From IMG/VR virus record IMGVR_UViG_3300042542_004122, positions 1 to 64,000 of that record: DNA of 64,000 bases. The stretch is one strand, 5' to 3'. This DNA comes from a virus. The translations under genes were made by a program, and so were the position numbers. Below the pieces are notes generated by a model. That model ran no database searches. It was not told the DNA's origin and worked only from the letters and a program-made list of their open reading frames with translations. Below, piece by piece: positions 7,130 to 46,739 of the stretch. Every line of letters begins with the position of its first letter. The first letter of the stretch is position 1.

Positions 7130-7158
7130 ATTATACTAAACTCAGAACTAGACAGCAA
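7130..7158 (-). promoter_or_regulatory. sigma70-type phage promoter TTGCTG-17-TATAAT
   Basis: Read directly on the minus strand. Confidence 0.7.
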
Positions 7159-11617: not shown

Positions 11618-11691
11618 TGGTGCCTCTCAGGGGATTTGAACCCCTCTACTCCGTTTTAGAGACGGTCGCATAGCCACTCTGCCAGAGAGAC
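11618..11691 (-). tRNA. amber suppressor tRNA (anticodon CTA)
   Basis: Full cloverleaf; CCGT-CTCTAAA-ACGG; T arm AGGGG-TTCAAAT-CCCCT; A73, CCA. Confidence 0.85.
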
Positions 11692-13322: not shown

Positions 13323-13351
13323 ATTATACGAAACTTTTGGGTAGATAGCAA
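13323..13351 (-). promoter_or_regulatory. phage promoter TTGCTA-17-TATAAT upstream of the first tRNA cluster
   Basis: Read directly. Confidence 0.75.
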
Positions 13352-16413: not shown

Positions 16414-16731
16414 CTAAATACTAAAAGACTTCCCACACCCACATCCAGCTTTTTGATTCGGGTTTTTAAGTTTCAAACCGCTGCTTCCAATAGTCTGTTC
16501 GTAATCTAACTCTGTCCCAGCTACATATAGTAAACTCATACTGTCTACAAAAAACTTACAAGTTAAAAGATCTATCTCAAAGTCATCAGGTTCTGCACTA
16601 TCTACAAATTCATAGTTATACACAAAACCAGAACATCCTCCGCCCTTGACTTCTAATTTAACCGCCTGCTTATTGTTTTCTTTGCATAGATACCTAATAT
16701 AATCTCTAGCGATGGGAGTTAAGCTAAACAT
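16414..16731 (-). CDS. iscA: A-type Fe-S carrier (IscA/HesB family)
   Basis: GGGCSG, CGCGKSF. Confidence 0.9.
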   Translation of the reverse strand: MFSLTPIARDYIRYLCKENNKQAVKLEVKGGGCSGFVYNYEFVDSAEPDDFEIDLLTCKFFVDSMSLLYVAGTELDYEQTIGSSGLKLKNPNQKAGCGCGKSFSI

Positions 16732-18217
16732 TTTGTTTTTTGTAAATTGTATTGCCTACTACCAACACATCTATGTCTGTTGATTTAAATAAGTTCATGG
16801 CATTCTCAATCCAGCCTGCTATAGGTTTTCCTGCTTCGTTAAGGCTTGTGTTTAATAATAAAGGGCACCCCGATAGTTCATGGAAAACTTCTAACAATTT
16901 TCTAAAAGCATAGTCAAACGATTCATTGACAGTTTGAGCGCGACAAGTTCCGTCGACATGAGTTATAGCTTGTAAATTATCTTTTTGTGTTGTGCCTAGA
17001 TAAAGCATATACGGATTTTCAAAATCTAGATCAAAATATTCTTTGCCATACTCTTGCAAAACACTAGCTCCAAAAGGTCTGTAGTACTCTCTATTTTTAA
17101 CCCTATTAATTATATCTTTTCCATTTTTAATTCTTGGGTCCATTAGTATAGATCTGTGCCCTAATGCTCGTGGACCTATCTCACCATGTCCTTGATACCA
17201 TGCAACAATTTTACCTTCATTTAAAAATTTAGCTGTTTGATATATGGTATCAATAGTAGGTTGGCTATGTGGAGACTGATCAGACTGCATGAATGGATAT
17301 CTAGACATATTAAACTTAGGTAAATTTTTTGATTGTCTAAATAGTTCAAGTGTTCCAAAAGTTAATCCCTCATCGCTGCAATGTGGATATATTATGAGAT
17401 TGGGGTATTTTTTCTTTAACAACGTATTCCAAACAACATTTTGTGCTACTCCACCTGAATAGCCTATTCTCTCATGCGGTTTGAAATGTTTTTCAAAAAA
17501 TTCTAGTAGTAATTCGCCTATTCTAAAATGAATAGTGTGAGCAATATCTAATTTTTGTTGCAGAGGTAATGTTCTATCAACAAAATATAAATGATCGTCA
17601 GATGCAACTGTCCATTTCCAAGGTCTGTCTTTACGCATACCTTTAACTGCAGTGCTAGTATAGTTCATGTTGTACTTTAAAAGATTTTCATAATGTTTCA
17701 AATTTAATCTACCATAACTTTGCCAACCCATAAGTTTACCCGCAAGATCAAGGCCATGACCTTCAATATCTAAATAATTTGCTATTATCCCCAAACCGTC
17801 GCCAAAACTTACGCCAGAATTAGAGGTAAGTATTTGGCTTATAATTTTATCATCTCTAAAAATGCTACACCAAAGATCAGCGTTATCCCCTAATCCATCA
17901 ACTACTACATGAGCATCTATTTTTTCTTTTTCTAATATCTCTACACTATATGCATGCTTTCTATGATGCCCTTGATACTTTTGATGTTCTGAGTAGCTAA
18001 TATCTAAAAAGTTACCATTATATTTATTTTTACAATAAACAGCAATAAAATCTTGAATTTGAAATTCAACAGCGGACTTGCCAGTAATATAAAATCCAAA
18101 ATGTTTATTTTGTAAAAGCCTTTCAAATTTTAAATAGCCTACTTTAGTATTAAAATAAGCTATGGAAGCATCATGATAAGGATGTGATGCTACTATGCTT
18201 AACATAATTTCTTGCAC
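16724..18217 (-). CDS. NodU/CmcH-family carbamoyltransferase
   Basis: HDAS, GKLMG, SGGVAQN, GPRALGHRS, RPFG, HVDGTCR, NTSLN. Confidence 0.9.
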   Translation of the reverse strand: MQEIMLSIVASHPYHDASIAYFNTKVGYLKFERLLQNKHFGFYITGKSAVEFQIQDFIAVYCKNKYNGNFLDISYSEHQKYQGHHRKHAYSVEILEKEKIDAHVVVDGLGDNADLWCSIFRDDKIISQILTSNSGVSFGDGLGIIANYLDIEGHGLDLAGKLMGWQSYGRLNLKHYENLLKYNMNYTSTAVKGMRKDRPWKWTVASDDHLYFVDRTLPLQQKLDIAHTIHFRIGELLLEFFEKHFKPHERIGYSGGVAQNVVWNTLLKKKYPNLIIYPHCSDEGLTFGTLELFRQSKNLPKFNMSRYPFMQSDQSPHSQPTIDTIYQTAKFLNEGKIVAWYQGHGEIGPRALGHRSILMDPRIKNGKDIINRVKNREYYRPFGASVLQEYGKEYFDLDFENPYMLYLGTTQKDNLQAITHVDGTCRAQTVNESFDYAFRKLLEVFHELSGCPLLLNTSLNEAGKPIAGWIENAMNLFKSTDIDVLVVGNTIYKKQNV

Positions 18218-19148
18218 AACTTAGCAATCGATTCTGAATACGAGATTCTGAGTATAAAGCTCTTAGGTGTTTACTATACTTTAGATCGTCTATCAATCTT
18301 TTCAACATTTTCAATTGAGTATTTTTATTAATTTCAGATGTTAATCCTATATATTTTAAAAAGGTATTAATGTCTGAAAGTTCTTCTTCTTTATTGATTA
18401 GTGCTAAAAACTCTCTATGAAAACCAAAAACACTGATTTCACATTTGGTAGTATAAGTATTTAGTAATTCATATAATAGCCTGTAATTTTTATCAATCCA
18501 GAATTTTTTCCAAAATGTTCTATATTGTACTTTTAGTTCTATTTCATTAATAAAATTATCTGGTAAAAGATATGAGTAGAATAAAAATTCGCAAGGTTTA
18601 TCTTGATTAAGAAGAACATCAATCGCTTCTTCTATGTTTTCAATTTTATCTAGATACTTTTTTTGAACATAAAAAGGCGTATGAGGTGTTAGAAAATAGT
18701 CTAATGATTTTTTTTTAAAGTAGTTACTGTAATCATCTACACATTTTTTTGATGGAAAAATATCATGTGCATGTATAGGGCTAATATTACCTGAGCCAAT
18801 AGTATTTTTCCAATTTGAATAGCTACTATTTCTAATAAAAAAATTCAATGGACCTAGAAGGAGGTAATCACCATCTATAAACTGAGAAACAAGTATTTTA
18901 ATTCCCTGATGTCTAAACCATCCATTCTTATAAGAATTTACCTTTGCAAAATCTTTGACACTTAAAACTTTTACAGAATTTTTGTCTTTATAATATTTCT
19001 CAATTAAAACATTCCACTTTTCAAAATCTGTATATTCATTAATAATTATCCAATGAACATACGAATCTATAAATTTGGATATTGATTCTAGTTGAAGTTC
19101 AAAAACTTCAAAATCACGGTCACAAACAATAGTAACTATATTCAACAT
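18171..19148 (-). CDS. GT-A-like hypothetical protein (possibly DUF6492-like)
   Basis: N-terminal VTIVCDRD, GWFRHQ.IK; AT-rich. Confidence 0.5.
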   Translation of the reverse strand: MLNIVTIVCDRDFEVFELQLESISKFIDSYVHWIIINEYTDFEKWNVLIEKYYKDKNSVKVLSVKDFAKVNSYKNGWFRHQGIKILVSQFIDGDYLLLGPLNFFIRNSSYSNWKNTIGSGNISPIHAHDIFPSKKCVDDYSNYFKKKSLDYFLTPHTPFYVQKKYLDKIENIEEAIDVLLNQDKPCEFLFYSYLLPDNFINEIELKVQYRTFWKKFWIDKNYRLLYELLNTYTTKCEISVFGFHREFLALINKEEELSDINTFLKYIGLTSEINKNTQLKMLKRLIDDLKYSKHLRALYSESRIQNRLLSCARNYVKHSSITSLS

Positions 19149-19151
19149 TCA

Positions 19152-19802
19152 TCAATCTTTAAGAGTATTAAAACTATCATCCATAACAAACTCAGTCATA
19201 TAACTATCGTCTGTATACATCTTATCTTTATTTTCTACAGAATATATTGTAAGATCAATCTCATAACCTGGATTACTAGTTATAGGATCTTTCACCCAGG
19301 CATTGTCATGCCAGATAATTCTATTATTAGGATAAATGTAGTAGTTGCCCTCGTCCATTTGGAATAGGTGGCCGCACTTATGTTCTGGAGTTTCAGAGAA
19401 GTTAGTATCTAATATTGCTCTATTTTCAAAAGACCAATCGAGAGTGAACAAATATATACCTTCTCTCTTATCTCCTGTTGGGGATATAAGTTTAGCTCTT
19501 AGTCTATTTAGTCTTGCTCTAACTTGCACATCTATATAAGGACTAAAACAATCCCAATATATATGCTCATTCAATGCTCTAACTGGAGCATCTTGCTTCC
19601 AACAAAAGGCTGTTATAGGTCTACGAGTCCAATTTACTCCATTTTCTAAAAATGCTTCAAATAGAGGAACTCTATTCTCAATAGAAGCTACTGAGTGCAT
19701 ATTGCAAGGAGTATACTCCCCGTGACCTTTACGGTGATTAAACAGATATTCATTCCTAATATAACAAGGTATAGTAGGTATATTATGATTTAAATAAGAC
19801 AT
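19152..19802 (-). CDS. hypothetical protein
   Basis: ORF track, 216 aa. Confidence 0.75.
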   Translation of the reverse strand: MSYLNHNIPTIPCYIRNEYLFNHRKGHGEYTPCNMHSVASIENRVPLFEAFLENGVNWTRRPITAFCWKQDAPVRALNEHIYWDCFSPYIDVQVRARLNRLRAKLISPTGDKREGIYLFTLDWSFENRAILDTNFSETPEHKCGHLFQMDEGNYYIYPNNRIIWHDNAWVKDPITSNPGYEIDLTIYSVENKDKMYTDDSYMTEFVMDDSFNTLKD

Positions 19803-20242
19803 TATTCACACCAAGATTTTTTTTCCTCTCCATAATACTCTCTAGCTAGTCCAGCTGCAATTAAAGATTTAGCTAAGTTTACATCGCCAACCATTACATC
19901 GGCATTAATTCTTCCACCAAATTTATCCCATTTAACTTTGCTAAAAGTAATAGTGGTATTATTAGCCTTTGCAGTCTCTATTAGTTTTTTGGTGTGCTCA
20001 GTAGCTTTGACAGCTAGTGCAGCCTCAGAAGGGCACTTGGCTCTTCCACCTTTTTCTGGCGTATCTACTCCTAGAACTCTTACTTTAAGTCCTAATTCAG
20101 GAGGTAGTCTCATAGAGGCTACATCAATCTCTAAAGTATCTCCATCTACAACTCTTAAAACTTTCCAGTCATATGATTTTGTCTGTGCAAATGCAGTTGT
20201 TGCAATAAGAACAAATGCAGTAGATAATAATAACTTTTTCAT
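19802..20242 (-). CDS. secreted thermonuclease (SNase family)
   Basis: Signal peptide, VVDGDT, GVDTPE, DKFGGR. Confidence 0.9.
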   Translation of the reverse strand: MKKLLLSTAFVLIATTAFAQTKSYDWKVLRVVDGDTLEIDVASMRLPPELGLKVRVLGVDTPEKGGRAKCPSEAALAVKATEHTKKLIETAKANNTTITFSKVKWDKFGGRINADVMVGDVNLAKSLIAAGLAREYYGEEKKSWCE

Positions 20243-20615
20243 GATTTACCTAATTTTCCTTTTTTCTTTTCTCCAGTTTCTCTAGAGATAAGACCTCTGG
20301 CTTTTAATCTAGCCTCTGCTGTAGCTCCGACTGATTCGCCTCTTTTATACTTAGATAACATTTTATCCAAGTGAGATTTCATCTTTTTTCCCTGAAATCG
20401 AAGTGCCATAGATATCCTTTTTGGAGCTGTGTAAGTTGTAAGCAGATATATAATCGTAGAACTCGTCTAAGATTTTTAACTTTTTAGCACGTTGTTCACA
20501 GTTATATGGAAATTTTAAATGAAGACCGTTACAAACTACGCAGCGCATAGTTAAAGCTTATCGTAGTAAGGTCCAGTAGTCAATAATAAAAAAACCGGGA
20601 TTTCTCCCGGTTTAA

Positions 20616-20972
20616 TTAGACTCCAAGTCCTCTATATTCTTCTTTTACTCGTATATTATCAGTTTCTAACTCTCGTCGCAAAACCTCTATAGCTTTCCAA
20701 GGATCACAATTACCGCAAGTAAAGATGTCTATACTAGCGTAATTAAGTTCTGGAAACGTGTGCCAAGAAGCGTGGCTTTCTGCTAAGAGAATTACTCCGC
20801 TGCATCCTTGCGGAGAGAACTGATGATCGTGCACATGGATAATAGTTGCCCCTGTCGCATTACAGGCCATGAGCATTGCATTTAACACATTCTCTCTAGT
20901 TAGAGCCGGAGAGTCAAACACCTCAATTAAGAGGTGTTTGCCTACGTAGTTTGTAGGATGAGAAAAACTCAT
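20616..20972 (-). CDS. speD: S-adenosylmethionine decarboxylase proenzyme
   Basis: FSPQG, LAESHASWHTFPE, DIFTCG. Confidence 0.9.
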   Translation of the reverse strand: MSFSHPTNYVGKHLLIEVFDSPALTRENVLNAMLMACNATGATIIHVHDHQFSPQGCSGVILLAESHASWHTFPELNYASIDIFTCGNCDPWKAIEVLRRELETDNIRVKEEYRGLGV

Positions 20973-20973
20973 C

Positions 20974-21342
20974 TTAGCAAGCCTGGCGAATGGTAAAGTC
21001 CCACTTTGCGTTCTGTGGCTCAAACCACTCACGGAAGTGAGCGACTACAGCCTCATTGTCGAACGGCTTGCAAGAAAAGATATCTAGATATCCATCGCCT
21101 GACTCATTGCACAGATGGGCAGTAATGCTTGAGGTTTCGATTGGCTGAAGTAGTGTGATACCGCATAGATCAGGGCGATCCTTTGGACCACAATCTTCAA
21201 TCCAAGGAGTGCCCATTGACTTCATGCCAATGAGTTTAAGTAGTGATTCGTTATATTGAAGAACATACGGAATGCTCTTGATTTTTTCGATGACGCAAGC
21301 GCGTGCATCAATACGTAGGTGATATCCCCAGTAGTTTGACAT
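20974..21342 (-). CDS. divergent AdoMetDC-family pyruvoyl decarboxylase
   Basis: WGYH, IETSSITAH, YLDIFSCKPF. Confidence 0.8.
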   Translation of the reverse strand: MSNYWGYHLRIDARACVIEKIKSIPYVLQYNESLLKLIGMKSMGTPWIEDCGPKDRPDLCGITLLQPIETSSITAHLCNESGDGYLDIFSCKPFDNEAVVAHFREWFEPQNAKWDFTIRQAC

Positions 21343-21519
21343 AGTGGTTCCTTTCATCAAATATTTAAATAAGATGAAGAAGCCCACTCTTCCATTCTTA
21401 ATCTAGGGCTATCAGGCAGGTTTAGCTTAGCAAACTGCCAAAATGTAATATATAATACAACTTTCTTAAGTGTTGGGCAAATATAAAATGCCAGCATTTG
21501 TTTAATGCTGGCATTTAAT

Positions 21520-21591
21520 TGGTGGCTTGACCTGGAATCGCACCAGAATGGCAGACTTATGAGATCCGCTCGGTTAACTAAACCTCAAGCC
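21520..21591 (-). tRNA. atypical tRNA(CAT), Met or Ile2, with a shrunken D arm
   Basis: GGCTTGA/TCAAGCC acceptor, loop CTCATAA, CCA. Confidence 0.65.
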
Positions 21592-21597
21592 TTGCAT

Positions 21598-22173
21598 TTA
21601 TAGCGTAGGACCGCCGACGGGGCGATTACATTCGCATAGTTGATCAGTAAGGAGTGCATCTAGAATACGTAGGGTCTCATCAGCACTACGTCCTACGTTT
21701 AGGTTATTCACCGAAACGTGCTGAATAACATCGCTAGGATCTACGATAAAAGTTGCACGGAGTGCAACACCAGAGGTAGTATCAAGAACTCCTAGCTGAT
21801 AGGCTAGGCCTGTAATCTCGACATCTTCTACAGGATCTACAAATCCTTCTCGAAGAGTATCGGCAAACATCCAAGAATTAGTCTTCTTTAGATCGGGATG
21901 TGCGTTTCTCCATGCTAGCTTGCAGAACTCATTATCGGTTGATCCGATAAGAAGAACTGTATCTCGGTCTTCAAAATCCTTATTTAGCTTATCATAAGCT
22001 ACAATCTCAGTAGGGCATACAAAGGTAAAGTCTTTAGGATAAAATACTATTACTTTCCACTTACCCGGAAAACTAGTCTCATCAATATGCTCAAAAGCAT
22101 CCTCACCCTCTAATACTCCTGGCTTAACGCCTTTAATATTAAATGATTCTAGCTTATCTCCAACGGTTTTCAT
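21598..22173 (-). CDS. ahpC: 2-Cys peroxiredoxin AhpC
   Basis: FYPKDFTFVCPTE, RATFIVDP. Confidence 0.92.
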   Translation of the reverse strand: MKTVGDKLESFNIKGVKPGVLEGEDAFEHIDETSFPGKWKVIVFYPKDFTFVCPTEIVAYDKLNKDFEDRDTVLLIGSTDNEFCKLAWRNAHPDLKKTNSWMFADTLREGFVDPVEDVEITGLAYQLGVLDTTSGVALRATFIVDPSDVIQHVSVNNLNVGRSADETLRILDALLTDQLCECNRPVGGPTL

Positions 22174-22646
22174 TTCTTCTCACTTTCTTCTTTCAAAACA
22201 TACTGTTGCATTTTATTGTGTGGTATTCCTGCAACATGAATACCAGGGGAACGTTGTCCCTTGCCGCTTTCATCAAAATAGTTTTTAAACTGTATATTGT
22301 ACGGTCTAAAATCTACATTGGCGGTTTTATACGCTCCAATAGTCATAACTTCTATTGGAGACGGATATAGTTTATCGTAAGCAGCTTTAACTACTTTCAT
22401 TACAGATTCAGCTCCTTTGCTGAAACCGTAAAGATAGTAGCATTTTTCATCTTCGACTATAGACATAGCAATATCTAAGTCTTCATGATAAAGTGTTATA
22501 GGATACAATCCTCGTAATTTAGCATAATCTTCAAAAGCTGCCTGATCAAATTGGCCTTTTAAACCACGAAAACCTATGATAACACAGTCGTTAGCATAGG
22601 TTTGTAGAGGCCATATAGTTAGTATGGTTGCGATTAGTTTTTTCAT
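22170..22646 (-). CDS. secreted alpha/beta-hydrolase-like protein
   Basis: Signal peptide, GFSKG elbow. Confidence 0.55.
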   Translation of the reverse strand: MKKLIATILTIWPLQTYANDCVIIGFRGLKGQFDQAAFEDYAKLRGLYPITLYHEDLDIAMSIVEDEKCYYLYGFSKGAESVMKVVKAAYDKLYPSPIEVMTIGAYKTANVDFRPYNIQFKNYFDESGKGQRSPGIHVAGIPHNKMQQYVLKEESEKK

Positions 22647-22876
22647 TTTAAAATTTGGTGTGGGCTATGCACAAGAGCGTTGCATCTTGCCATGATCTCT
22701 TTTCCAATCCCCCACACAGACTAGAACGTTCTGTCATCTCTATAAACCTTCACCAACCGACAGCTCAGAGTGTGAATTTGTTGAGAAATTTTACATAGCC
22801 TCTTCAACAGGCTCTCCTCTAGCAGTCTTCATTGACTGACGTTACGTATCGTGTCAATCCATCGTCTACTAGAAAC

Positions 22877-22953
22877 TGGCGCCTCTGGCAGGAGTCGAAC
22901 CCACAACCGCTCGGGTAGAAACCGATTGCTCTATCCAATTGAGCTACAAAGGC
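22877..22953 (-). tRNA. tRNA-Arg(TCT)
   Basis: Loop TTTCTAC, CCA. Confidence 0.9.
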
Positions 22954-23007
22954 ATTTAACTTTATGATTAATAATATCAAGTTTAGAGATAACTTGCAAC
23001 TAAAAAA

Positions 23008-23081
23008 TGGCACCGGCACAAGGACTTGAACCCTGACAAACAGATTTGGAGGCTGTCGTGCTACCATTACACTATGCCGAT
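23008..23081 (-). tRNA. tRNA-Trp(CCA)
   Basis: Loop CTCCAAA, G73, CCA. Confidence 0.85.
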
Positions 23082-23085
23082 AATT

Positions 23086-23171
23086 TGGTGCCCGCAGCCA
23101 GACTTGAACTGGCACGCCTCTAAAGGCTACGGATTTTAAGTCCGTTGCGTCTGCCATTCCGCCATGCGGGC
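23086..23171 (-). tRNA. tRNA-Leu(TAA)
   Basis: Loop CTTAAAA, long variable arm. Confidence 0.9.
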
Positions 23172-23176
23172 AATAT

Positions 23177-23252
23177 TGGTAGCCGTAGAAGGAGTTGCAC
23201 CTACAACATCTCACTAATCAGGTGAGCGCTCTGCTAATTGAGCTATACGGCT
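23177..23252 (-). tRNA. tRNA-Ile(GAT)
   Basis: CTCAC-CTGATTA-GTGAG. Confidence 0.88.
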
Positions 23253-23257
23253 ACAAT

Positions 23258-23351
23258 TGGTAGTCCCACCAGGATTCGAACCTGGACTGCTCTCTAATCT
23301 GGAGACAATGCCGAATATAAGTCGGGTGTTCTACCGTTAAACTATGGGACC
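23258..23351 (-). tRNA. tRNA-Ile(TAT) with a long variable arm
   Basis: CCGA-CTTATAT-TCGG, about 22-nt variable hairpin, CCA. Confidence 0.8.
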
Positions 23352-23360
23352 ATAAAAATA

Positions 23361-23436
23361 TGGAGGGCCCCGTCGGAGTCGAACCGACAACCTACAACTT
23401 AAAAGGATGCTGCTCTGCCAATTGAGCTAGGGGCCC
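23361..23436 (-). tRNA. tRNA-Lys(TTT)
   Basis: Loop CTTTTAA. Confidence 0.88.
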
Positions 23437-23588
23437 TGATGTTACTGACAGCATTATCACATCCTAAGTAGGTTCTAAATACTCGGTTTTATCTACATCA
23501 TACTCTCGGGTCATATAGCGTACGCAACTGAATCGTGCCTTATATGGCTTGCAATAGTAGACCGGGCATACCGAAACCGGTAAAAAAA

Positions 23589-23663
23589 TGGTGGGCCGTG
23601 ACGGGATTGAACCGCCGACATTCGCCGTGTAAAGACGCTGCTCTGCCGCTGAGCTAACAGCCC
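23589..23663 (-). tRNA. tRNA-Val(TAC)
   Basis: Loop TTTACAC. Confidence 0.9.
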
Positions 23664-23738
23664 ATAAAAGCCCCTGCCGGCCCGTGAGTTTCTTTCGTGG
23701 GCAGGAACGGTATGTTTTATATCAAAAACATACAAAAC

Positions 23739-23814
23739 TGGTAGAGCGTAGGGGATTCGAACCCCTGTTAACGGATTGAAAGCCCGCGATCCTAGGCCGC
23801 TAGACGAACGCTCC
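23739..23814 (-). tRNA. tRNA-Glu(TTC)
   Basis: Loop CTTTCAA, Glu-type D arm. Confidence 0.88.
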
Positions 23815-23819
23815 TCAAT

Positions 23820-23894
23820 TGGTTGCAGAGACAGGACTTGCACCTGTGGCCTTCTGGGTATGAGCCAGACGAGCTGCTTCTGCTCCACTCTGCG
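23820..23894 (-). tRNA. initiator tRNA-fMet(CAT)
   Basis: C1:A72 mismatch, loop CTCATAC. Confidence 0.85.
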
Positions 23895-23903
23895 TTATGA
23901 TAC

Positions 23904-24009
23904 TTGATTGTGTGCATTTTTATGAGAATCGAACTCACTCAACTCCGAACGCGGCAGAGCTATTTACCATTATATCGGCGTGGCCTTTGCCTTCCATGCA
24001 CACAATCAA
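23904..24009 (-). ncRNA. tRNA-like RNA closed by a 14-bp terminal stem
   Basis: TTGATTGTGTGCAT/ATGCACACAATCAA enclosing a TTCGATT T arm and an anticodon-like arm. Confidence 0.55.
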
Positions 24010-24159
24010 ATATCATTGATACTTGTTTCCCGAATTTTACTCTCTGCGTTGTCGCCGCAGATCCTTCATCCGACAATGTTTTTCAAAACATCAACTTATA
24101 TATAATACTAAAACTTAGAGCATCTAGCAATATAAAAATGCAATTTTATACTCTAGACG

Positions 24160-24205
24160 CAAAAAATGCGATAATCTAGGTTACCCTAAACTATCGCATT
24201 TTTGT
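24160..24205 (-). terminator. intrinsic terminator at the end of the large ncRNA
   Basis: AAAAATGCGATA...TATCGCATTTTTT hairpin. Confidence 0.75.
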
Positions 24206-25052
24206 AGGAAAGCTGAGATTACACTTTCTATATTAGCACTTCAAGAGGTACCCTCTATTTGCAGTAGAGGTTTTCTTGACATCCACCAGATGCCTGCTAA
24301 GGTCACCCAGTATACCAACAGTATCGCCTTTTAAAGTCTGGCAGTAGACTTGACGTTATACGCTACTCTATATTATACCGTCCGCTGACCTTGCGAGCCA
24401 TTAAGCCTTGCGAGCTACGAATTTTTTAATATAAACTGATTTCACCTTGCGGGTTACATCAGACCAAGTTCTCTTTCGAGCTTGGTATTAGATACCTTTC
24501 ACATATAACCGAGGCAGACTTTGCTTTTTTAAAACATTGACTGGATTTGAACCAGCGTCCGTTTGCTTCCAACGCAAATGCTCATCCACTGAGCTACAAT
24601 AATAACCTACTGCGATGTGCTGCCTCGTTGCTCCGTATGGTTTTGACATACAAAATACAACACACCACGTATCTTTCGCGACGCGCGCTACTCGATCGTA
24701 TTTTGCGACGATGTATAAGCATTTATAGCTTATCCACTACCGCTGATACTGCAAAAATGCCTTTAGTTGCTTAAACTTCAGACAGAGATGCTACCCTTTG
24801 TTCTACCAACTGCTAGATTGGTGTTGTAGTGAAGTCGGCACCACCCGTTACATTCCAATAACTTAGGTTCCCCTTTCGGGCCTATAAGCTATCGTTTTCT
24901 CACTACACCTAGTTCATTGTTACCTCCGTTGCCGAAGGCTAGGAACTGGGCTTGCTTAAGTGGGCCACTCGGAGAGTGGTGCGGTTATGTAGGGATTACC
25001 GCTTTTATCACATTACTGTGACTATCCTTATGGGGCTTAAGCGCCCCAACTC
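24205..25052 (-). ncRNA. probable GOLLD RNA (about 850 nt) with an embedded tRNA-like domain
   Basis: No convincing ORF, own promoter and terminator, dense hairpins with GCAA/GAAA tetraloops, inside a phage tRNA array. Confidence 0.7.
24533..24603 (-). tRNA. tRNA-like domain (TGG anticodon, no CCA) inside the large ncRNA
   Basis: TAGCTCAGTGGATGAGC D arm, TTTGC-GTTGGAA-GCAAA, CTGG-TTCAAAT-CCAG; weak acceptor. Confidence 0.7.
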
Positions 25053-25250
25053 ATTATTTATCTATAATATCAAACTTTTAAGTAACTACCAACTAAAAAA
25101 TGACTTTTCTTTGTCGGTCCTCTTTAAGAGTTTTATTTTGTAGGAGAGGAGGTTTTACCTGTCTCTCCGCTTCAGTTTTTATATATTACTAAACTTTTTA
25201 GCGTTGAGCAATATAAAAATAAAAGAATTTGGTATAGTGCTATTTTTAAA

Positions 25251-25328
25251 TGGTCCGGGTAGCAGGATTTGAACCTACGACCCCTCCGCCCCAAACGGAG
25301 TGCTCTAGCCAGACTGAGCTATACCCGG
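25251..25328 (-). tRNA. tRNA-Pro(TGG)
   Basis: CTCCG-TTTGGGG-CGGAG. Confidence 0.9.
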
Positions 25329-25338
25329 TTAAATTATG

Positions 25339-25414
25339 TGGAGGACTCGACAGGAGTTGCACCTGCATATTACCGATTTGCAGTCGGCTGCCTAACTATT
25401 CGAACCACGAGTCC
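25339..25414 (-). tRNA. tRNA-Cys(GCA)
   Basis: Loop CTGCAAA, U73. Confidence 0.85.
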
Positions 25415-25416
25415 GT

Positions 25417-25491
25417 TGGGGTGACTACTCGGATTTGAGCCGAGTCTGACAGAATCACAATCTGTAGTGCTGCCATTACACTATAGCCACC
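25417..25491 (-). tRNA. tRNA-His(GTG)
   Basis: Loop TTGTGAT, G-1/C73. Confidence 0.88.
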
Positions 25492-25496
25492 ATAAC

Positions 25497-25572
25497 TGGT
25501 GCCCCAGACAAGACTTGCACTTGTTTCCTTACCCTTACCAAGGGTCTGTTCAGCTATATGAACTTCAGGGGC
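25497..25572 (-). tRNA. tRNA-Thr(GGT)
   Basis: Loop TTGGTAA. Confidence 0.85.
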
Positions 25573-25578
25573 GTAATA

Positions 25579-25654
25579 TGGTAGGTTGTCTCTGAATCGA
25601 ACAGAGTTCCTTCGCTCTTCAGGCGAATGTGTGCACCAGCTTCACCAACAACCC
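25579..25654 (-). tRNA. tRNA-Phe(GAA)
   Basis: TTCGC-CTGAAGA-GCGAA. Confidence 0.85.
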
Positions 25655-25655
25655 A

Positions 25656-25732
25656 TGGAGTACCTAGTAGGACTTAAACCCACAACCTCTCAGTTCGTAG
25701 CCGAGTGCTCTGTTCAATTGAGCTATAGGTAC
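25656..25732 (-). tRNA. tRNA-Arg(ACG)
   Basis: Loop CTACGAA. Confidence 0.88.
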
Positions 25733-25738
25733 AAGAAA

Positions 25739-25815
25739 TGGTAGACCTCTTCGGACTTGAACCGAAAACCCTCAGTTTAAGAGACTGATGCTCTAACCAA
25801 TTGAGCTAGAGGTCC
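25739..25815 (-). tRNA. tRNA-Lys(CTT)
   Basis: TCAGT-CTCTTAA-ACTGA. Confidence 0.9.
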
Positions 25816-25818
25816 ATA

Positions 25819-25907
25819 TGGCGGAGAGCCGGAAGTACGATTTCCATCCCTTTGCAGGCACCCTCAGTTTAGCAAACTGTGCTAGCTCCCCGCTAGTTGG
25901 CCTCTCC
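25819..25907 (-). tRNA. tRNA-Ser(GCT), atypical D and T loops
   Basis: Loop TTGCTAA, long variable arm, G73, CCA. Confidence 0.75.
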
Positions 25908-26102
25908 AGAAATTTGTTTATAATGATGTAAACAGTATTTACGATGCTTATAGTGAATATGAGCATCATCAAAACAGTTATGAAAAGCACAAAGCTCTAG
26001 CTTGTTTTTAAACACAGCTAGAGCGTGCCCAGCGGCGTCAGCGTCTAGTTGGGTCATCCAATCTACAAACGCGCGGCGAGCATCCTGCAATTCATCATTC
26101 AT
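25893..26102 (-). CDS. small Cys/His-rich hypothetical protein
   Basis: ORF track, follows a promoter; its end overlaps the tRNA-Ser 5' end. Confidence 0.5.
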   Translation of the reverse strand: MNDELQDARRAFVDWMTQLDADAAGHALAVFKNKLELCAFHNCFDDAHIHYKHRKYCLHHYKQISGEAN

Positions 26103-26151
26103 ATAGATATCTTACTACAGAAATAAGTATTAAGCAAGATAAAAATGAAAT

Positions 26152-26241
26152 TGGCGGAGTGATGGCGGAATCGAACCCCTGGCCCGTAGGCTCCAACCGC
26201 TTTCAAGGCGGTGCTAGTATCCCCGACTAGACATGCACTCC
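26152..26241 (-). tRNA. tRNA-Ser(TGA), atypical D arm
   Basis: ACCGC-CTTGAAA-GCGGT, long variable arm. Confidence 0.8.
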
Positions 26242-26374
26242 AAATTCTTTGTAGTTAACCCATTTGAGATATAGGTGATGGCACACGGGACATTCTGTTG
26301 GTCCCGCATAATCTTGCCACTCTGTGGCACAACGCATACATCTAAAATGGGCTATTTGGCGATTCATTGTAAAT

Positions 26375-26458
26375 TGGTGCGACTAGAGGGATTTGCACCC
26401 CCACCTCTCTCGAGACTAGTTCCTAAGACTAGCGCGTCTGCTGTTTCGCCATAGTCGC
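26375..26458 (-). tRNA. tRNA-Leu(TAG)
   Basis: CTAGT-CTTAGGA-ACTAG. Confidence 0.9.
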
Positions 26459-26464
26459 ATTATC

Positions 26465-26539
26465 TGGTGCCCACAGAGAGGATTGAACTCCCGACCTTCG
26501 GTTTACAAAACCGCTGCACTACCGCTGTGCTATATGGGC
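26465..26539 (-). tRNA. tRNA-Thr(TGT)
   Basis: Loop TTTGTAA. Confidence 0.9.
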
Positions 26540-26594
26540 TCGTTTAATTGTTTTTAGATTATAAGATATTTTTTAGCAAATACCAATAAAAAAA

Positions 26595-27119
26595 TTAATG
26601 TTCCCACTCATACCAGGCAACTGATAGAGCTACAGTCGCAGTAGCTCCGGAGTGTTCAACACTTACCATATAATTAGAGTTAGGAGCTAAGATATATTCA
26701 GGAACTCCGTCATTTTGAAGATCCCCAGAATCTGCTTTACCGAAATTATAGTGAGTAGTTAGTAGAGTTCCATTAGCACTAGCTACTGCCCCAGAATATG
26801 TAAAAGCGCGATTTGTTGTAATCTCTTCTGGGTGTCTATTAGCACATATTACCGCTGTGCCAGTTCCCTCGGATGTTAAGGTAGGATTTTCAAATATTTT
26901 TAATATTAAAGTTCCACTAGAGTTGTAACTAATAATTTTTCTAAGATGAACCGTAGTAGCATTAGTTCTTATTAATACATTGCTAATTGCAGTTCCTACA
27001 GAACCGTAATCTACGTCTGTAACAAAAGTTTTTCCTTGGTGAACCATTTGGTGCTCAATAGTTCTATAAACCTGAATAGGCTCTAGAGAGCGTTCATAAG
27101 AATTAGTTCTTACCACCAT
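26595..27119 (-). CDS. beta-rich hypothetical protein
   Basis: ORF track, start trimmed to MVVRT. Confidence 0.7.
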   Translation of the reverse strand: MVVRTNSYERSLEPIQVYRTIEHQMVHQGKTFVTDVDYGSVGTAISNVLIRTNATTVHLRKIISYNSSGTLILKIFENPTLTSEGTGTAVICANRHPEEITTNRAFTYSGAVASANGTLLTTHYNFGKADSGDLQNDGVPEYILAPNSNYMVSVEHSGATATVALSVAWYEWEH

Positions 27120-27282
27120 CTTTTTTTCTCCATAACAGCTCAAGCATTATTTCTAGCTTTTGCTGTTCGCTATACTGAGTCCAATTTTGTATCTCAGTTA
27201 TAGTTCTACGACATCCTACGCATGTATTAGTTTTATAAGAGATCTTACAAACCTTAATGCAAGGTGTTAGTATTTTTTTCAT
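27103..27282 (-). CDS. DUF1289-like Cys-rich protein
   Basis: Manual ORF: TPCIKVC...CVGCRRTITEIQNW. Confidence 0.8.
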   Translation of the reverse strand: MKKILTPCIKVCKISYKTNTCVGCRRTITEIQNWTQYSEQQKLEIMLELLWRKKDGGKN

Positions 27283-27517
27283 TACGATTCATAACTTGCT
27301 TAACTCCGTTAATAAACTCTTCAGCCCAACGATTTCTAAAATCTTTCGGACCGCTATTTATAATACTAGAGCAACAAGCTATGTGTGCAGCTAATAAGGC
27401 AGCAACTATGTAGTGAGAATCCTCTAAAGATTCAGAGGCGACCCTTGTTGCGGCCGCCTCTGTCATGCTTTGATATAGATCATCTCTTAGTTTTAAGAAC
27501 TTATCAAAGTTTTCCAT
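27254..27517 (-). CDS. hypothetical protein
   Basis: ORF track. Confidence 0.65.
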   Translation of the reverse strand: MENFDKFLKLRDDLYQSMTEAAATRVASESLEDSHYIVAALLAAHIACCSSIINSGPKDFRNRWAEEFINGVKQVMNRNEKNTNTLH

Positions 27518-27953
27518 CTTTTAACAATTCACCCATCCTACCACGTTTCATGGCTTCCTGCACTCTTTTAAATTCAGATAGACGAGGATTCCACTTATTA
27601 AGTAGTAAGTCAATTTTATCAGTTTTTACAGCTTGAATAGCAGCTGCTCTTTGTAGACCAGCTTCTCCATACTGATTAAGTAATTGGGCTGCTCTAGACT
27701 CTACGTCGTTATCTTTAAGATATTTGTCGCGTAATACTTTTTCTTGAGCATTTTGTGGTCTATCAATGATCCTAGTTCTCCAGCGAAGACTTTGAAAAAG
27801 AGAATCAAGTCTATCATACTCTGACCTATCTTTTCTAGCAAGTAGTTTATACTTCCTAGAAACAGGTCGCGCACTAACTTTAGGACCAGTCTTCTTAGTA
27901 GATACTGCTTGTGTCTGTTTTTGATTTTTATTTTTTGCCATGTATAACTCCAA
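27504..27953 (-). CDS. basic hypothetical protein
   Basis: ORF track. Confidence 0.7.
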   Translation of the reverse strand: MELYMAKNKNQKQTQAVSTKKTGPKVSARPVSRKYKLLARKDRSEYDRLDSLFQSLRWRTRIIDRPQNAQEKVLRDKYLKDNDVESRAAQLLNQYGEAGLQRAAAIQAVKTDKIDLLLNKWNPRLSEFKRVQEAMKRGRMGELLKDGKL

Positions 27954-28182
27954 TAGTAGCTATACTATCAAATAAGACAGATACAAGCAAGTATTATTAT
28001 AGTTATTTTTGTTGTAATGCTCTAAGACTTTCAGTTGAAGTAACTGATATGAGTGTAGTATCTGTTTCATATAAGGCGTGACATTTAAAACAAGATATTA
28101 ACTCAGCAGACTCATCAGAACGTTTCCAATCTATGTTCTCATTACCACATTTAATACAGAAAGTCTTAAAGATACAAATCAC

Positions 28183-28473
28183 TCAGTCTTCTTTAGCTAT
28201 CTTAGCAGTTTTTTCTTGAGTGCGACCAAAGGCTGAGATACCTAATACTGCGCCCATAGCTAGGTGAAATAGTCCACCTTCTGCTAGAGTTAAACTTTTC
28301 CACACTGTGTGCGGTATTTTAGTTACAGCAGATAAAATACCAAAAAATACAGGAGCTAACATAAAATCAAATAAACATATTGCCATGTAACTCCAACCCA
28401 TGGCCGGTCTCCAGTATTTTTGAACCCAACTCTCAGGTGGTTTTACCTCTTTAGGTTCTGTATCATCGCTCAT
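28183..28473 (-). CDS. holin-like membrane protein
   Basis: WRPAMGW, TM segments, GRTQEK tail; end of the lysis cassette. Confidence 0.7.
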   Translation of the reverse strand: MSDDTEPKEVKPPESWVQKYWRPAMGWSYMAICLFDFMLAPVFFGILSAVTKIPHTVWKSLTLAEGGLFHLAMGAVLGISAFGRTQEKTAKIAKED

Positions 28474-28482
28474 CTCTTTCCT

Positions 28483-28734
28483 TTAAGAAGCTGCCTGAGC
28501 TATTGCTATTAAGGCTTTTACTGCTTCTTCAATTTTTGCTTGAGTCTCTAACTCATCTGCAAATTTAGCTAAGTTTTTTTGAGAGATTAAGTCTCTTAAT
28601 AGTTCTTCATGTTCTTCTTTAGAAATTAATCCTTCTTCAAACTCTCTATGATATTTAATAGCTTTATTAGCACAACTAATAACGGCAAAATCTGTGTGCC
28701 TAGATAGATTAGTTAATTCGGATATTGGGTTCAT
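28483..28734 (-). CDS. hypothetical protein
   Basis: ORF track. Confidence 0.65.
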   Translation of the reverse strand: MNPISELTNLSRHTDFAVISCANKAIKYHREFEEGLISKEEHEELLRDLISQKNLAKFADELETQAKIEEAVKALIAIAQAAS

Positions 28735-29120
28735 CTAGATCTCCTATTCATACTTTGTTGCATTGTTTCTGTAGATTCCATGATGGTTTCCAGTTTTTCT
28801 TCGCAATAAGTTTTAGATACTCTAGATACAGTAAGATATCTATTATGCATAGGTTCTACTATATTAAAAAGTTCTTTGCTCATATTATATGTAGGGTTGT
28901 TATTAGGTAGATGTTCAGAATAGTGAACTAAAGTGAGACTAAGTTCTGTCATCTGTTGAGTTTTATCTCTCATATACGACATATCGTCACAATGTTTACG
29001 AGAAAGCTGACTGATAGTTCTAATTTGAGTTACATATGAATATTCAACAGAATCAAATTTAGCAGTAAATATACAACTACTGAGAAGGAGTGTTAGAGGT
29101 ATCAGACTTAATTTCTTCAT
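28731..29120 (-). CDS. lipoprotein
   Basis: MKK...LLSSC lipobox. Confidence 0.7.
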   Translation of the reverse strand: MKKLSLIPLTLLLSSCIFTAKFDSVEYSYVTQIRTISQLSRKHCDDMSYMRDKTQQMTELSLTLVHYSEHLPNNNPTYNMSKELFNIVEPMHNRYLTVSRVSKTYCEEKLETIMESTETMQQSMNRRSR

Positions 29121-29484
29121 TAGAAGTAACCTTCCTATAATATACAATTATTTCTTTCTGTTGATTGATGTAACGTCGTATCTCTTCTAAATTTAAAGCC
29201 ATAGTTTCATAGTCTTTAACGCTAAAAGCTATAAATACAAAGTCATCACCGTATTTTTTCTTCCATTGTTTTAAGAAGTCATCTATATTTTCACTAGTAA
29301 CTACTTTGAATTCTACATCTTCTAATTTTACAGCTCTAACAGCAGCCGGCTGCATTACAGGAACTTTAACAGGTTCCGCAGATATCTCTATCTTTTTTTC
29401 TCTAGAAAAACAGCCAGATAATAAAACAAGGCTACTTACTAGTAGTATCTTGTTCAATCTGCCTAAAGGTTCTCTTAGTTCCAT
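29077..29484 (-). CDS. o-spanin-like lipoprotein
   Basis: LLSGC lipobox, overlaps the i-spanin, downstream of the endolysin. Confidence 0.7.
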   Translation of the reverse strand: MELREPLGRLNKILLVSSLVLLSGCFSREKKIEISAEPVKVPVMQPAAVRAVKLEDVEFKVVTSENIDDFLKQWKKKYGDDFVFIAFSVKDYETMALNLEEIRRYINQQKEIIVYYRKVTSNEEIKSDTSNTPSQ

Positions 29485-29812
29485 TATTAATCTTTTTTTC
29501 TGCTTCAGAAGGTCTATCTTTCAAAATCTTTTCTAGATTGTGTTTTTTTAAAAGATTAGACAACTTAGCTTTATCTTCTTCTACCTTAGATAGATTAGAT
29601 TGTAATTCATTAGCAAGTTTTGCTTGTCTAGCAAAATCTTCTTTCATAGCTTCTATAGTTTTCTTCTGTATCTCTACAGCTACTTCTAATTTAGCTACGT
29701 TCTCTTGTAAAATTTGAATAGTATTTTGACTATCTACATAGTAAATATAAAAGGCACTAGATACGGTAACAAGAGCTATTGCTAAACCTAGCGATATTTT
29801 TCCGCCTATCAT
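29432..29812 (-). CDS. i-spanin-like protein
   Basis: N-terminal TM plus coiled coil, after the endolysin. Confidence 0.7.
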   Translation of the reverse strand: MIGGKISLGLAIALVTVSSAFYIYYVDSQNTIQILQENVAKLEVAVEIQKKTIEAMKEDFARQAKLANELQSNLSKVEEDKAKLSNLLKKHNLEKILKDRPSEAEKKINNGTKRTFRQIEQDTTSK

Positions 29813-30276
29813 TATGCAATTAATCCTGGTTTATATACTGTCTTTCCATTTTCTTTCATAGCGGTCATAACTTTCTTCTGATTATCACCTTCTACATAAG
29901 ATACATGGACCCAGCCACTATCTGGTATTCCTGGGGTATAGAATTCTAAAATTAACTGTCTAAATTCTAGGTTATTTCTAATCCATTCTGCTAATTCTGC
30001 ATTAGCTATTCCGGGTATTTCAATGTCGGCAGCTTGGCCTTGGCAGTGATCTGAGGTCTTTGATCCGCCTACAGCCGCGTTAACTTCTGGATGGCGAAAC
30101 CCAGAGTTAACTTTTACACCCTTGCCAAAAGCATCCCTGATAGGCTGAAGAACATTTTCACAAAGAGCCTTTAGGTTTTCAATCTCTCTTTCTCCAGGGG
30201 TATTATCAAGTCCGTGTCTAAGGGCTGTTTCGCTCTTAACCATTTCTGATAGAGAAAAGTTTTTTGTAAGCTGCAT
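29812..30276 (-). CDS. endolysin, peptidase M15A family
   Basis: NSGFR, SDHCQGQAAD, WVHVS. Confidence 0.9.
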   Translation of the reverse strand: MQLTKNFSLSEMVKSETALRHGLDNTPGEREIENLKALCENVLQPIRDAFGKGVKVNSGFRHPEVNAAVGGSKTSDHCQGQAADIEIPGIANAELAEWIRNNLEFRQLILEFYTPGIPDSGWVHVSYVEGDNQKKVMTAMKENGKTVYKPGLIA

Positions 30277-30453
30277 ATGAACTCCTTTTTAATTATTGGT
30301 AGTTTATCAAAACTTTTTTTACTAGTCAAACCAAAATCTTCCAAGTTACCTATGCAACATTAATTTTTTAGATTTACATAAGCACAGAAAAGTATTCTTT
30401 TACTATTTGTGGTATTTTTAAAAAAGTGTATAATATCTATAAAGGAGCACGTC

Positions 30454-30738
30454 ATGGAAGCAGAATTCTTTAAACTGGTTGCAGAGGTAGGATTTCCTAT
30501 AGCATCATCTATAGCTGGTGGTTACTTTGTATTTCTTACTCTCAAATTCATTCTCGCAGGGGTTCAAAGCTCTGTAAAAGGTTTAAGTGGAATTATTGTT
30601 GCACTTGATAACAGAGTTAAAACAATGAACCACGATATTATCAGAATTGATGCACTAATATCTACAGCTCTAGGAGTAAAACCAGATACAGATAGAATTG
30701 CAAGAGCGGACGGTAAAAACGACGCTAGAAAGGACTAA
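30454..30738 (+). CDS. small membrane/coiled-coil protein A
   Basis: AGGAG SD; GFPIA, TM segment, LDNRV..MNHDIIRI. Confidence 0.75.
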   Translation: MEAEFFKLVAEVGFPIASSIAGGYFVFLTLKFILAGVQSSVKGLSGIIVALDNRVKTMNHDIIRIDALISTALGVKPDTDRIARADGKNDARKD

Positions 30739-30924
30739 GGTGTTTTACTTAGGTTATAATATACAAATATCAAATAGCTCTCTAGTATTAGACGAAGAGT
30801 TAGTTTTAATGCCCAATCAAAATAATAGTAGGATACAACAAACTTTACCTTGGAAAGAAGGTGATAAATTTGAATTAACAGTAATTCAGGGTAATACTGT
30901 ATTTAAAAAAGTGAAGGATTAACT

Positions 30925-31167
30925 ATGGATATGGTTCAACTTATTAATAAATATGGATTTCCCATTGTTGCTGCAGGCGGTATGGGTTACCTTATTTTTT
31001 ACGTTTGGAAATGGGCAACGGCAGAAATTAAACCTGTTCTATCAGAAGCTAATACTGTATTGATAGCATTAATAGATCGTGTCAGAATGTTAGATAACGA
31101 TTTAATAAGACTTAATCAAAAGATTAACATAGTATTAATGCTAAAGGAAAGGAATGAAAAGCCGTAA
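30925..31167 (+). CDS. small membrane/coiled-coil protein B (paralog of A)
   Basis: GFPIV, TM segment, LIDRV..LDNDLIRL. Confidence 0.75.
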   Translation: MDMVQLINKYGFPIVAAGGMGYLIFYVWKWATAEIKPVLSEANTVLIALIDRVRMLDNDLIRLNQKINIVLMLKERNEKP

Positions 31168-46139: not shown

Positions 46140-46451
46140 CTGACGTCGATATTGTTTTAGCACAAGCAAGAAGATTATATCATCATTATACTAATTTAGA
46201 ATCTCCTAATAGACAATTCTCTAGAGTAGCTGATGATTTTGGTTCGATAGTAGAAAATTTAGAATACATTCAATCAAAATTACATAGTGTTTCAACTAAA
46301 ACATAACTACTTTAAAGGTCAAGTCGTAGAATTTAGTTATAATTACTGGTCCATCTATAATGAGGCTGGTAAGCTAATTCTGACTACTAAAGATAAAAAA
46401 TATGCTGAGGCTAAATTGCAACAACTAAATAAGGCTTTAGCAGACAAGATC

Positions 46452-46717: not shown

Positions 46718-46739
46718 ATTCCTTTTAGAAAGATTTTTA

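Follow-up and report, generated by a model that had tools for sequence, protein, structure and literature searches.

Here we describe a GOLLD RNA gene that carries a transfer RNA (tRNA) within it, in the genome of an uncultured freshwater phage. The subject is IMG/VR virus record IMGVR_UViG_3300042542_004122, and the window, as we call the whole stretch that was analysed, is the first 64,000 nucleotides (nt) of that record. We put at about 0.7 the probability of our overall reading, which is that the minus strand of the window from about 25176 to 24213 is a GOLLD gene inside an island of 19 tRNA genes, and that its embedded tRNA is retained in the RNA as a tethered module. The tRNA-shaped piece probably does not read codons. 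This reading draws on a full-length covariance-model match, on environmental RNA contigs that run through the tRNA, and on a comparison of embedded with free tRNAs among relatives.

A GOLLD RNA gene in a phage tRNA island

When the whole window was compared with Rfam 15 at gathering thresholds (cmscan), 32 matches were returned, and the best of them was GOLLD (RF02032) at 24210-24668 on the minus strand, with 205.3 bits against a gathering cut-off of 150, an E-value of 1.5e-56, and coverage of model positions 1-416 of 416. The same match was recovered from the full record and from an E-value scan of 23880-25260. An initial annotation, made from the letters of the window alone, had already named GOLLD as the family, and the covariance comparison with GOLLD and ROOL bears it out: the GOLLD match is full-length, and none of the window's 32 matches at gathering level is to ROOL (RF03087). 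Within 23880-25260, at E-values up to 1, the other families were limited to an LDH1 5′ untranslated region at 21.3 bits and a transfer-messenger RNA (tmRNA) end at 8.9 bits, both at chance level. The longest open reading frame (ORF) in 24160-25090 has 75 amino acids, in keeping with the earlier remark that no convincing ORF is present. Judged from its sequence, this gene-free stretch encodes a genuine GOLLD RNA, and it has the features of the family: phage origin, a tRNA island, a structured 5′ domain, a tRNA-bearing linker, and one RNA of at least 800 nt. ARAGORN finds 28 tRNAs in the window, all on the minus strand, and one permuted tmRNA; 19 of the 28 tRNAs are clustered at 22877-26539, around the GOLLD gene, with tRNA genes on both sides of it.

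The Rfam model covers the 3′ domain alone, and the conserved GOLLD core of the window is longer, 837 nt from 25046 to 24210. The remainder was defined by an alignment, A1, of 455 nt ending at the hairpin that opens the Rfam model; it contains the window and those 20 of 65 dereplicated relatives of the same subclade that have enough upstream sequence. RNAalifold predicts 122 base pairs from these 21 sequences, 78 of them with compensatory changes on both sides. In this structure 97.7% of cells are paired, against 81.5% in shuffled alignments, and none of 500 shuffles attains any of the five observed measures; sliding the partner by 1-3 columns leaves 37-45% paired. The window conforms to the consensus, save for a missing helix 9. 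All 13 relatives checked, from the 20 aligned, exceed the Rfam GOLLD cut-off, at 159.5-226 bits.

Smaller structural claims of the initial annotation also stand. GNRA-type hairpins are present at CTCGCAAGG (24414-24406 and 24397-24389), CCCGCAAGG (24453-24445), CTCGAAAGAG (24480-24471) and CCCGAAAGGG (24880-24871). The terminator, at 24203-24160, folds at -25.9 kcal/mol, with a z-score of -6.24 and no equal among 200 shuffles. Alignment to the GOLLD model places the embedded tRNA at about model positions 63-130, which is the variable linker, as had been proposed. The parts of the gene and the RNA contigs that cover it are collected in Table 1.

Table 1. Parts of the GOLLD gene in the window and the environmental RNA contigs that match it
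Feature	Position	Strand	Length	Depth	Basis or remark
Promoter-like P1, TTGCTC-17-TAATAT	25183..25211	-			Motif scan; contigs reach 25158-25194
Promoter-like P2, TTGGTA-17-TATTAT with TG	25064..25092	-			Motif scan; RNA contigs pass through
5′ leader in RNA contigs	25047..25176	-			Contigs to 25126-25194; adapter-bounded ends 25126, 25161
GOLLD 5′ domain, structured, outside Rfam model	24669..25046	-			Alignment A1 covariation
Hairpin opening the Rfam GOLLD model (positions 1-62)	24610..24668	-			Rfam alignment and relatives' alignment
Conserved GUAGGUU junction after hairpin	24610-24604	-			Alignments
Embedded tRNA-shaped module, variable linker	24532..24603	-			ARAGORN, Rfam tRNA, contigs bridging
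GOLLD conserved 3′ domain core, AAAAAGCAAAGUCU ... GUGUAAUCUCAGCUU	24210..24531	-			Rfam model ~130-416; nhmmer anchor B 24528-24212
Intrinsic terminator, 19-bp hairpin and U-run	24160..24203	-			RNA contigs mostly end short of it: 24213, 24214, 24219; 24185 once
X15 GOLLD contig	24185-25161		986 nt	194
X16 GOLLD contig	24219-25194		976 nt	549
X17 GOLLD contig	24213-25158		964 nt	270
X20 GOLLD contig 1	24214-24696		506 nt	836
X20 GOLLD contig 2 (abuts contig 1)	24698-25126		453 nt	1029

An abundant RNA that runs through the tRNA

In natural metatranscriptomes the GOLLD of the window is plentiful, as an RNA of about 950 nt. The stretch was found in 20 of 24 listed sequencing runs, of which 14 are DNA runs from lake, drinking-water and freshwater metagenomes and six are metatranscriptomes from six studies; contigs from four of the six RNA runs, representing four studies, were mapped onto 19000-31000. 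In each of these four runs the GOLLD gene is covered by one contig or by two abutting ones, with 0-4 differences each from the window. Contig depth over the flanking protein-coding parts is 0-7 in the same runs, and this scant or absent cover is not to be taken as evidence that the flanks are silent. Over tRNA parts of the window (22681-22837), short contigs have depths of 11-89, well under that of GOLLD, and X20 has six flank contigs that are identical to the window, at depths of 2.9-7. Since carried-over DNA would give even depth, the GOLLD signal is RNA. The transcript that the initial annotation predicted does therefore exist in public RNA libraries, at about 950-965 nt by the contigs and not the 850 nt or so that had been estimated.

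Both borders of the embedded tRNA are bridged by a contig, by far more than 31 letters, in four of four RNA runs; contigs give the fact of bridging, and the share that is processed cannot be read from them. All the other letters that occur in the RNA contigs of X16, X17 and X20 are accounted for elsewhere than in the anticodon, so these contigs retain the anticodon UGG. Some short RNA contigs match 24485-24531 and then diverge into other T-arm sequences (loose ends at 24529-24533), from which it follows that related GOLLDs with other embedded tRNAs co-occur in the RNA samples.

Loose contig ends marked by Illumina adapter lie at 24213 (X17), 24214 (X20), 25126 (X20) and 25161 (X15). As a contig-based hint and not as mapped termini, they place the 3′ end of the RNA where the GOLLD model ends, about 45 nt ahead of the U-run of the terminator, with one run reaching 24185, and its 5′ ends upstream of the promoter at 25092-25064. 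That promoter is the one the initial annotation had assigned to the gene: the site is present, and it does not account for the RNA contigs, which start upstream of it at 25126, 25158, 25161 and 25194. At least part of the RNA begins upstream of P2, and P1 is probably the start of a longer transcript, with a transcription start site near 25176. Nothing equivalent to the 5′ leader so defined occurs in the 20 aligned relatives, where the promoters adjoin the first hairpins. P1 and P2 share a promoter-like motif, TTGnnn ... AGTTT ... TAwnAT, that occurs five times in the window, always on the minus strand and ahead of tRNA clusters and GOLLD (7130-7158, 13323-13351, 24102-24130, 25064-25092 and 25183-25211), against 0.44 occurrences expected in shuffles.

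The embedded tRNA and the free tRNA-Pro

At 24532-24603 an internal tRNA with anticodon UGG is recognised by ARAGORN and, at 52.7 bits, by the Rfam tRNA model, which upholds the fold that the initial annotation had described together with its weak acceptor and lack of CCA. The anticodon is at 24571-24569; the acceptor stem is AU-rich, pairs at six of seven positions with a single G-C pair, and has a U2.U71 mismatch; UAA follows U73 where CCA would stand. As the initial annotation observed, a normal tRNA-Pro(UGG) lies nearby, at 25251-25328 (its span also given as 25254-25328), and the two copies differ at several positions. The free copy has C1-G72, A73, G37, U32, a fully paired acceptor stem (7/7) and an encoded CCA; the embedded copy has A1-U72, U73, A37 and G32. 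Bacterial tRNA-Pro is recognised by G37, by the acceptor-end pair C1-G72 (G72) and by A73, and the embedded copy has none of these. It is also out of line with its neighbours, since CCA is encoded in 27 of 27 free tRNAs of the window and the acceptor stem is paired 7/7 in 26 of 27. On the comparative evidence the embedded 'tRNA-Pro(UGG)' is more probably a tethered tRNA-shaped module, co-inherited with GOLLD, than a second tRNA-Pro gene.

The opposite view is that the embedded tRNA is a working gene for which GOLLD serves also as precursor or store: RNase P and a 3′ nuclease would cut the tRNA free, it would gain its CCA and go on to decode, and switches of anticodon would adapt the tRNA supply of the phage. 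The quality of the cloverleaf speaks for it, as does a review that proposes an 'inhibited storage' of tRNA (PMC12990946). Against it are the RNA contigs that bridge the tRNA in every run, and the fact that the window copy duplicates a canonical tRNA-Pro(UGG) while lacking G37, C1-G72 and A73. The pseudo-tRNA within the linker of the Mycobacterium aubagnense GOLLD likewise gave no separate tRNA signal by Northern blot (PMC6582537). On balance we regard release of a decoding tRNA as unlikely.

The closest strain adds a further argument. A 20-letter word from the 3′ core of the window finds one other IMG/VR contig, L092, which is identical at 884 of 888 positions (99.5%) over leader, 5′ domain, tRNA and 3′ core. 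Its four differences are a GAAA loop changed to GCAA, two changes in helices, and an anticodon changed from UGG to UGA; by our arithmetic, the chance that at least one of four random changes would strike the three anticodon bases is about 1.3%. The variable loop of the module has 5 nt, and tRNA-Ser belongs to class II, whose variable loop is unlike this one. That strains so nearly identical should read UGG and UGA is a point against a working tRNA.

Searches for a docking site of the anticodon within GOLLD and for the means of maturing the module were negative within their scope. For a CCA-adding enzyme, PF01743 gave a sub-threshold match only (16 bits, cut-off 23) at 8241-8582, in a record that is about 67% complete, and the ORF at 8241-8582 has no Pfam match at E 0.01. 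RlaP, which occurs near GOLLD in two roseophages (see below), was not found in this same partial record. Docking of the anticodon on a triplet of the GOLLD hairpin or 3′ domain was considered and rejected, as complementarity was no better than for shuffled anticodons: in the hairpin and 3′-domain alignment the best column reached 24 of 49, against a mean of 23.9 and a maximum of 25.

Embedded and free tRNAs in relatives

Relatives were gathered by two exact-word scans of IMG/VR that gave at least 119 stretches each and at least 237 loci, a sample biased to one clade. Profiles (nhmmer) of the hairpin and of the 3′ core located the GOLLDs, with a 3′-core match at no fewer than 93 loci and both anchors at 83 or more; clustering at 97% identity reduced 79 full 3′ domains to 65 clusters. 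A linker tRNA is called by ARAGORN at 68 of 83 two-anchor loci and, at the same site, in 54 of the 65 sampled clusters; the Rfam tRNA model adds at least one more, in L079. The linker measures 74-82 nt in most of the 83 sampled loci.

These embedded tRNAs combine a well-kept shape with a poor acceptor end. Feature counts for free tRNAs are anchored on the T-arm, that is, on the 627 of 674 in which its motif was found; the motif is present in 54 of 54 embedded tRNAs, and a 5/5 T stem in 51 of 54 embedded and 602 of 627 free ones. Among the 54, all of them ARAGORN-detected, the D loop has GG in 53 and the anticodon stem is paired 5/5 in 51. The acceptor stem, by contrast, is paired 7/7 in 5 of 54 embedded tRNAs against 541 of 627 free ones, with a mean of 1.19 G-C pairs against 4.31, and CCA is encoded in 3 of 54 against 579 of 627. 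These acceptor-end counts argue against a working tRNA in the family as a whole. In its favour are Rfam tRNA scores of 47.9-65.7 bits for the embedded tRNAs of 10 relatives, U33 in 51 of 54, and an anticodon loop of 7 nt in 49 of them.

The anticodon behaves differently from the body that carries it. The 54 embedded tRNAs yield at least 19 anticodon calls, with CUU, UCU, GUU and UUU the commonest, and the set includes CUA, UCA and AUG, with five loops that are not of 7 nt. By global identity the nearest tRNA to an embedded one is that of another GOLLD in 53 of 54 cases, often with a different anticodon. For pairs at least 90% identical outside the anticodon, the anticodon differs in 10 of 23 embedded pairs and in none of 162 free ones; at 85-90% identity the figures are 15 of 23 and 9 of 188, with most of the listed changes among free pairs falling at the wobble position. 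Individual cases make the same point: the GOLLDs of L087 and L121 are at least 97% identical, and their embedded tRNAs have an 8-nt anticodon loop and UUU, respectively, and in the group of L064, L067 and L070 near-identical tRNA bodies read AUG, UAG, UAU or CUU. All this is evidence that the linker tRNAs form a lineage of their own, with the shape kept, the acceptor weak, CCA absent and the anticodon labile.

Several of these observations return to the idea of a released, decoding tRNA. Many lineages show single-step anticodon changes between Lys, Asn, Arg, Ile and Thr, and the synthetases for these five amino acids use the anticodon for identity, so that such changes may be counted in its favour. 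Counting against it, the anticodons include AUG, some loops have 8 nt, and Ser and Leu anticodons sit on short-arm bodies; all four embedded tRNAs that bear a Leu or Ser anticodon have lengths of 71-75 nt, and free tRNAs with Leu, Ser or Tyr anticodons have at least 79 nt in 84 of 105. As a filler of gaps in the tRNA set the module was rejected: in seven of the 14 loci that hold 15 or more free tRNAs, loci that are themselves partial, the same anticodon is already present in a free tRNA, and three more have odd loops.

A third view takes the tRNA for a relic in decay that has no role, a gene caught in a linker that tolerates it and left to neutral drift. On that account the anticodon is as changeable as the N of a tetraloop, and the differences of L092 do include both a GNRA loop and the anticodon; in 11 of 65 relatives the tRNA is gone or degraded, their linkers being 39-63 nt or their D/T loops degenerate. 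Drift sits poorly with a tRNA shape that is kept across GOLLDs whose 3′ domains are just about 70% identical, with the near-constant T-arm motif, T stem, D-loop GG and anticodon stem of the detected cases, and with the narrow range of linker lengths. We consider a relic improbable.

What the comparison shows is a conserved tRNA shape with an anticodon that changes much more rapidly than those of free tRNAs, and such a pattern fits diversifying selection or neutrality alike. If selection is at work, one conceivable form is a caged decoy or sponge, with diversifying selection acting on its anticodon loop, which we would call a long shot. Were it true, each particle would hold 12-14 tethered tRNA mimics, uncleavable at their ends, and these would sequester host factors specific to anticodon stem-loops, candidates being the anticodon nucleases of anti-phage defence or tRNA-modifying enzymes, and the turnover of anticodons (Lys, Arg, Asn, Thr, Leu, Pro/Ser and others) would track the specificity of the host factor.

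A module probably tethered in a cage

The tethered module that we favour can be pictured from the GOLLD structures already solved. GOLLD of env-38 forms a 14-mer (9MEE) and that of Streptococcus agalactiae a 12-mer (9L0R), as described in a review (PMC12990946), and in these self-assembled cages the linker is directed inwards (PMC12990946; Kretsch et al.). By analogy, 12-14 copies of the window GOLLD would form a closed cage made of RNA only, and the variable linker, and hence the tRNA module, would face its interior, tethered at both ends. The module would then act while still joined to the scaffold, through the shape of its elbow and anticodon arm, and not as a released decoder; under such an arrangement the T-arm, D-loop GG and anticodon stem would be kept, the acceptor end could be weak and without CCA, and the anticodon would be free to change. 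Candidate partners of the caged tRNA shape would include the ribosome and proteins that process or cut tRNAs. Kretsch et al. list ribosomes and linked tRNAs as possible contents of the cage.

A number of points weigh against this reading. The module scores within the 42.5-68.1 bit range of the free tRNAs and combines U33 with a 7-nt loop, a fully paired (5/5) anticodon stem and an elbow that is intact, so that it might still decode once released; phage tRNAs without CCA can be matured in other systems. Contigs give presence and not proportions, so that a processed fraction is invisible to them, and mature tRNAs are poorly captured; each depth is one mean per contig, from runs selected for containing the stretch. 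ARAGORN criteria favour canonical loops and so bias the 54 embedded cases, the sample leans to one clade as said above, and the tRNA pair counts are not phylogenetically independent. The class II argument is weakened by the 21 of 105 free Leu, Ser and Tyr tRNAs that are also short. Finally, because the tRNA was lost or degraded in 11 of the 65 sampled relatives, it is not essential to GOLLD.

The phage and the surroundings of the gene

The full IMG/VR record has 72,161 bases and a G+C content of 37%. It encodes DNA polymerase A, a primase, a helicase, an NAD ligase and an exonuclease, and the polymerase is closest to those of T5-like phages, at 38-40% identity; the phage that bears this GOLLD is distantly like T5. 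Auxiliary genes that are uncommon in a T5-like phage lie at 14351-15376, 16724-18217, 21598-22173 and 35904-37958, with products that include a PstS-like phosphate-binding protein, a carbamoyltransferase, an AhpC/TSA peroxiredoxin, and a CHASE2-adenylate/guanylate cyclase adjoining a FecR-domain protein.

Other RNA elements of the window deserve mention. The permuted, two-piece tmRNA lies at 46419-46768 on the plus strand (tmRNA_permuted, 123.9 bits) and has the tag peptide ANDNSIEEIRLAA. A tRNA with the amber-reading anticodon CUA stands at 11618-11691 on the minus strand, in the first tRNA cluster. It raised the matter of TAG recoding, which was rejected: TAG closes 9 of 59 ORFs of at least 120 amino acids, and read-through gains just 3-37 codons.

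Between the GOLLD terminator and a tRNA-Met is a 156-nt segment (23899-24054, within 23895-24100, minus strand) with a promoter-like site of its own at 24130-24102. It is predicted to fold into a four-way junction with a closing stem of 21 bp and a T-arm-like hairpin (-65.2 kcal/mol, z-score -5.04); ARAGORN makes no call there, and Rfam gives only the tmRNA-end match of 8.9 bits. In L168, a strain 99.5% identical in GOLLD, the segment is swapped exactly for an unrelated 122 nt with no notable fold. In the tRNA array of a related phage, L069, a match to a group I intron was seen at 5559-5751 (52.7 bits, cut-off 50).

Comparison with known GOLLD RNAs and significance

The window RNA resembles RF02032 in its full-length model match, its conserved 3′ and less conserved but structured 5′ domain, its tRNA-carrying variable linker, its place in a phage tRNA island and its size above 800 nt. 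It stands apart from the sampled GOLLDs in several ways: apart from the near-identical L092, its 3′ domain is about 72% identical to theirs at most, it is without helix 9 of A1, and a further leader of about 120 nt precedes its 5′ domain, with a tandem pair of promoter-like sites. Unlike env-38 and S. agalactiae GOLLD, its cage would follow by homology. ROOL is alike in being a large ornate phage RNA near tRNA islands that forms cages with a disordered interior linker, and differs in that its sequence and fold are unrelated.

Among cultured phages, blastn of the region finds only two roseophages, over 18% of the query. These are Phaeobacter phage MD18 (MT270409; L002 3010-3477) and phage DSS3_MAL1 (MN602268; L003 3013-3476), whose GOLLDs score 169.6 and 160.5 bits and are not annotated as GOLLD. 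Both hold a tRNA in the same linker with the same flanking motifs, as in the window; unlike the window, theirs reads UCU (Arg), and the records call it just tRNA-Arg. In the two roseophages GOLLD is directly succeeded by a permuted tmRNA; in the window the tmRNA is 22 kb away. They are marine phages of about 149 kb where ours is from freshwater. Both also have a gene with an RlaP domain, an RNA-repair nucleotidyltransferase, about 1.3-1.4 kb downstream of GOLLD.

Embedded tRNAs were previously reported in mycobacteria. The Mycolicibacterium GOLLD has a tRNA-Phe in linker J13/15 (Morgado 2020, as cited in PMC12990946), alongside the M. aubagnense case discussed above. The window differs from these mycobacterial cases in host phylum and anticodon, and here the evidence for retention comes from environmental RNA contigs in place of a Northern blot. 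The novelty implied by the initial annotation does not hold, given that tRNAs embedded in GOLLD had already been published (PMC12990946; Kretsch et al.; PMC6582537). The window RNA is a well-supported new member of GOLLD, and its assignment to the family is in itself ordinary; the lability of the anticodon, together with the RNA evidence, is a modest addition. In the literature searched, which takes in few subscription journals and no supplements, we found no paper on anticodon lability in GOLLD, on its expression in the environment, or on embedded tRNAs as a lineage apart.

Among bacterial and phage RNAs whose function is not known, GOLLD is one of the largest, and the recent cage structures raised the question of what they contain. 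To this the present locus adds a natural case, in which a full-length, tRNA-containing GOLLD is abundant in environmental RNA. MD18 and DSS3_MAL1 are cultured, tractable phages with the same arrangement, and the combined evidence makes the choice between a covalently linked cargo and a stored tRNA testable at the bench.

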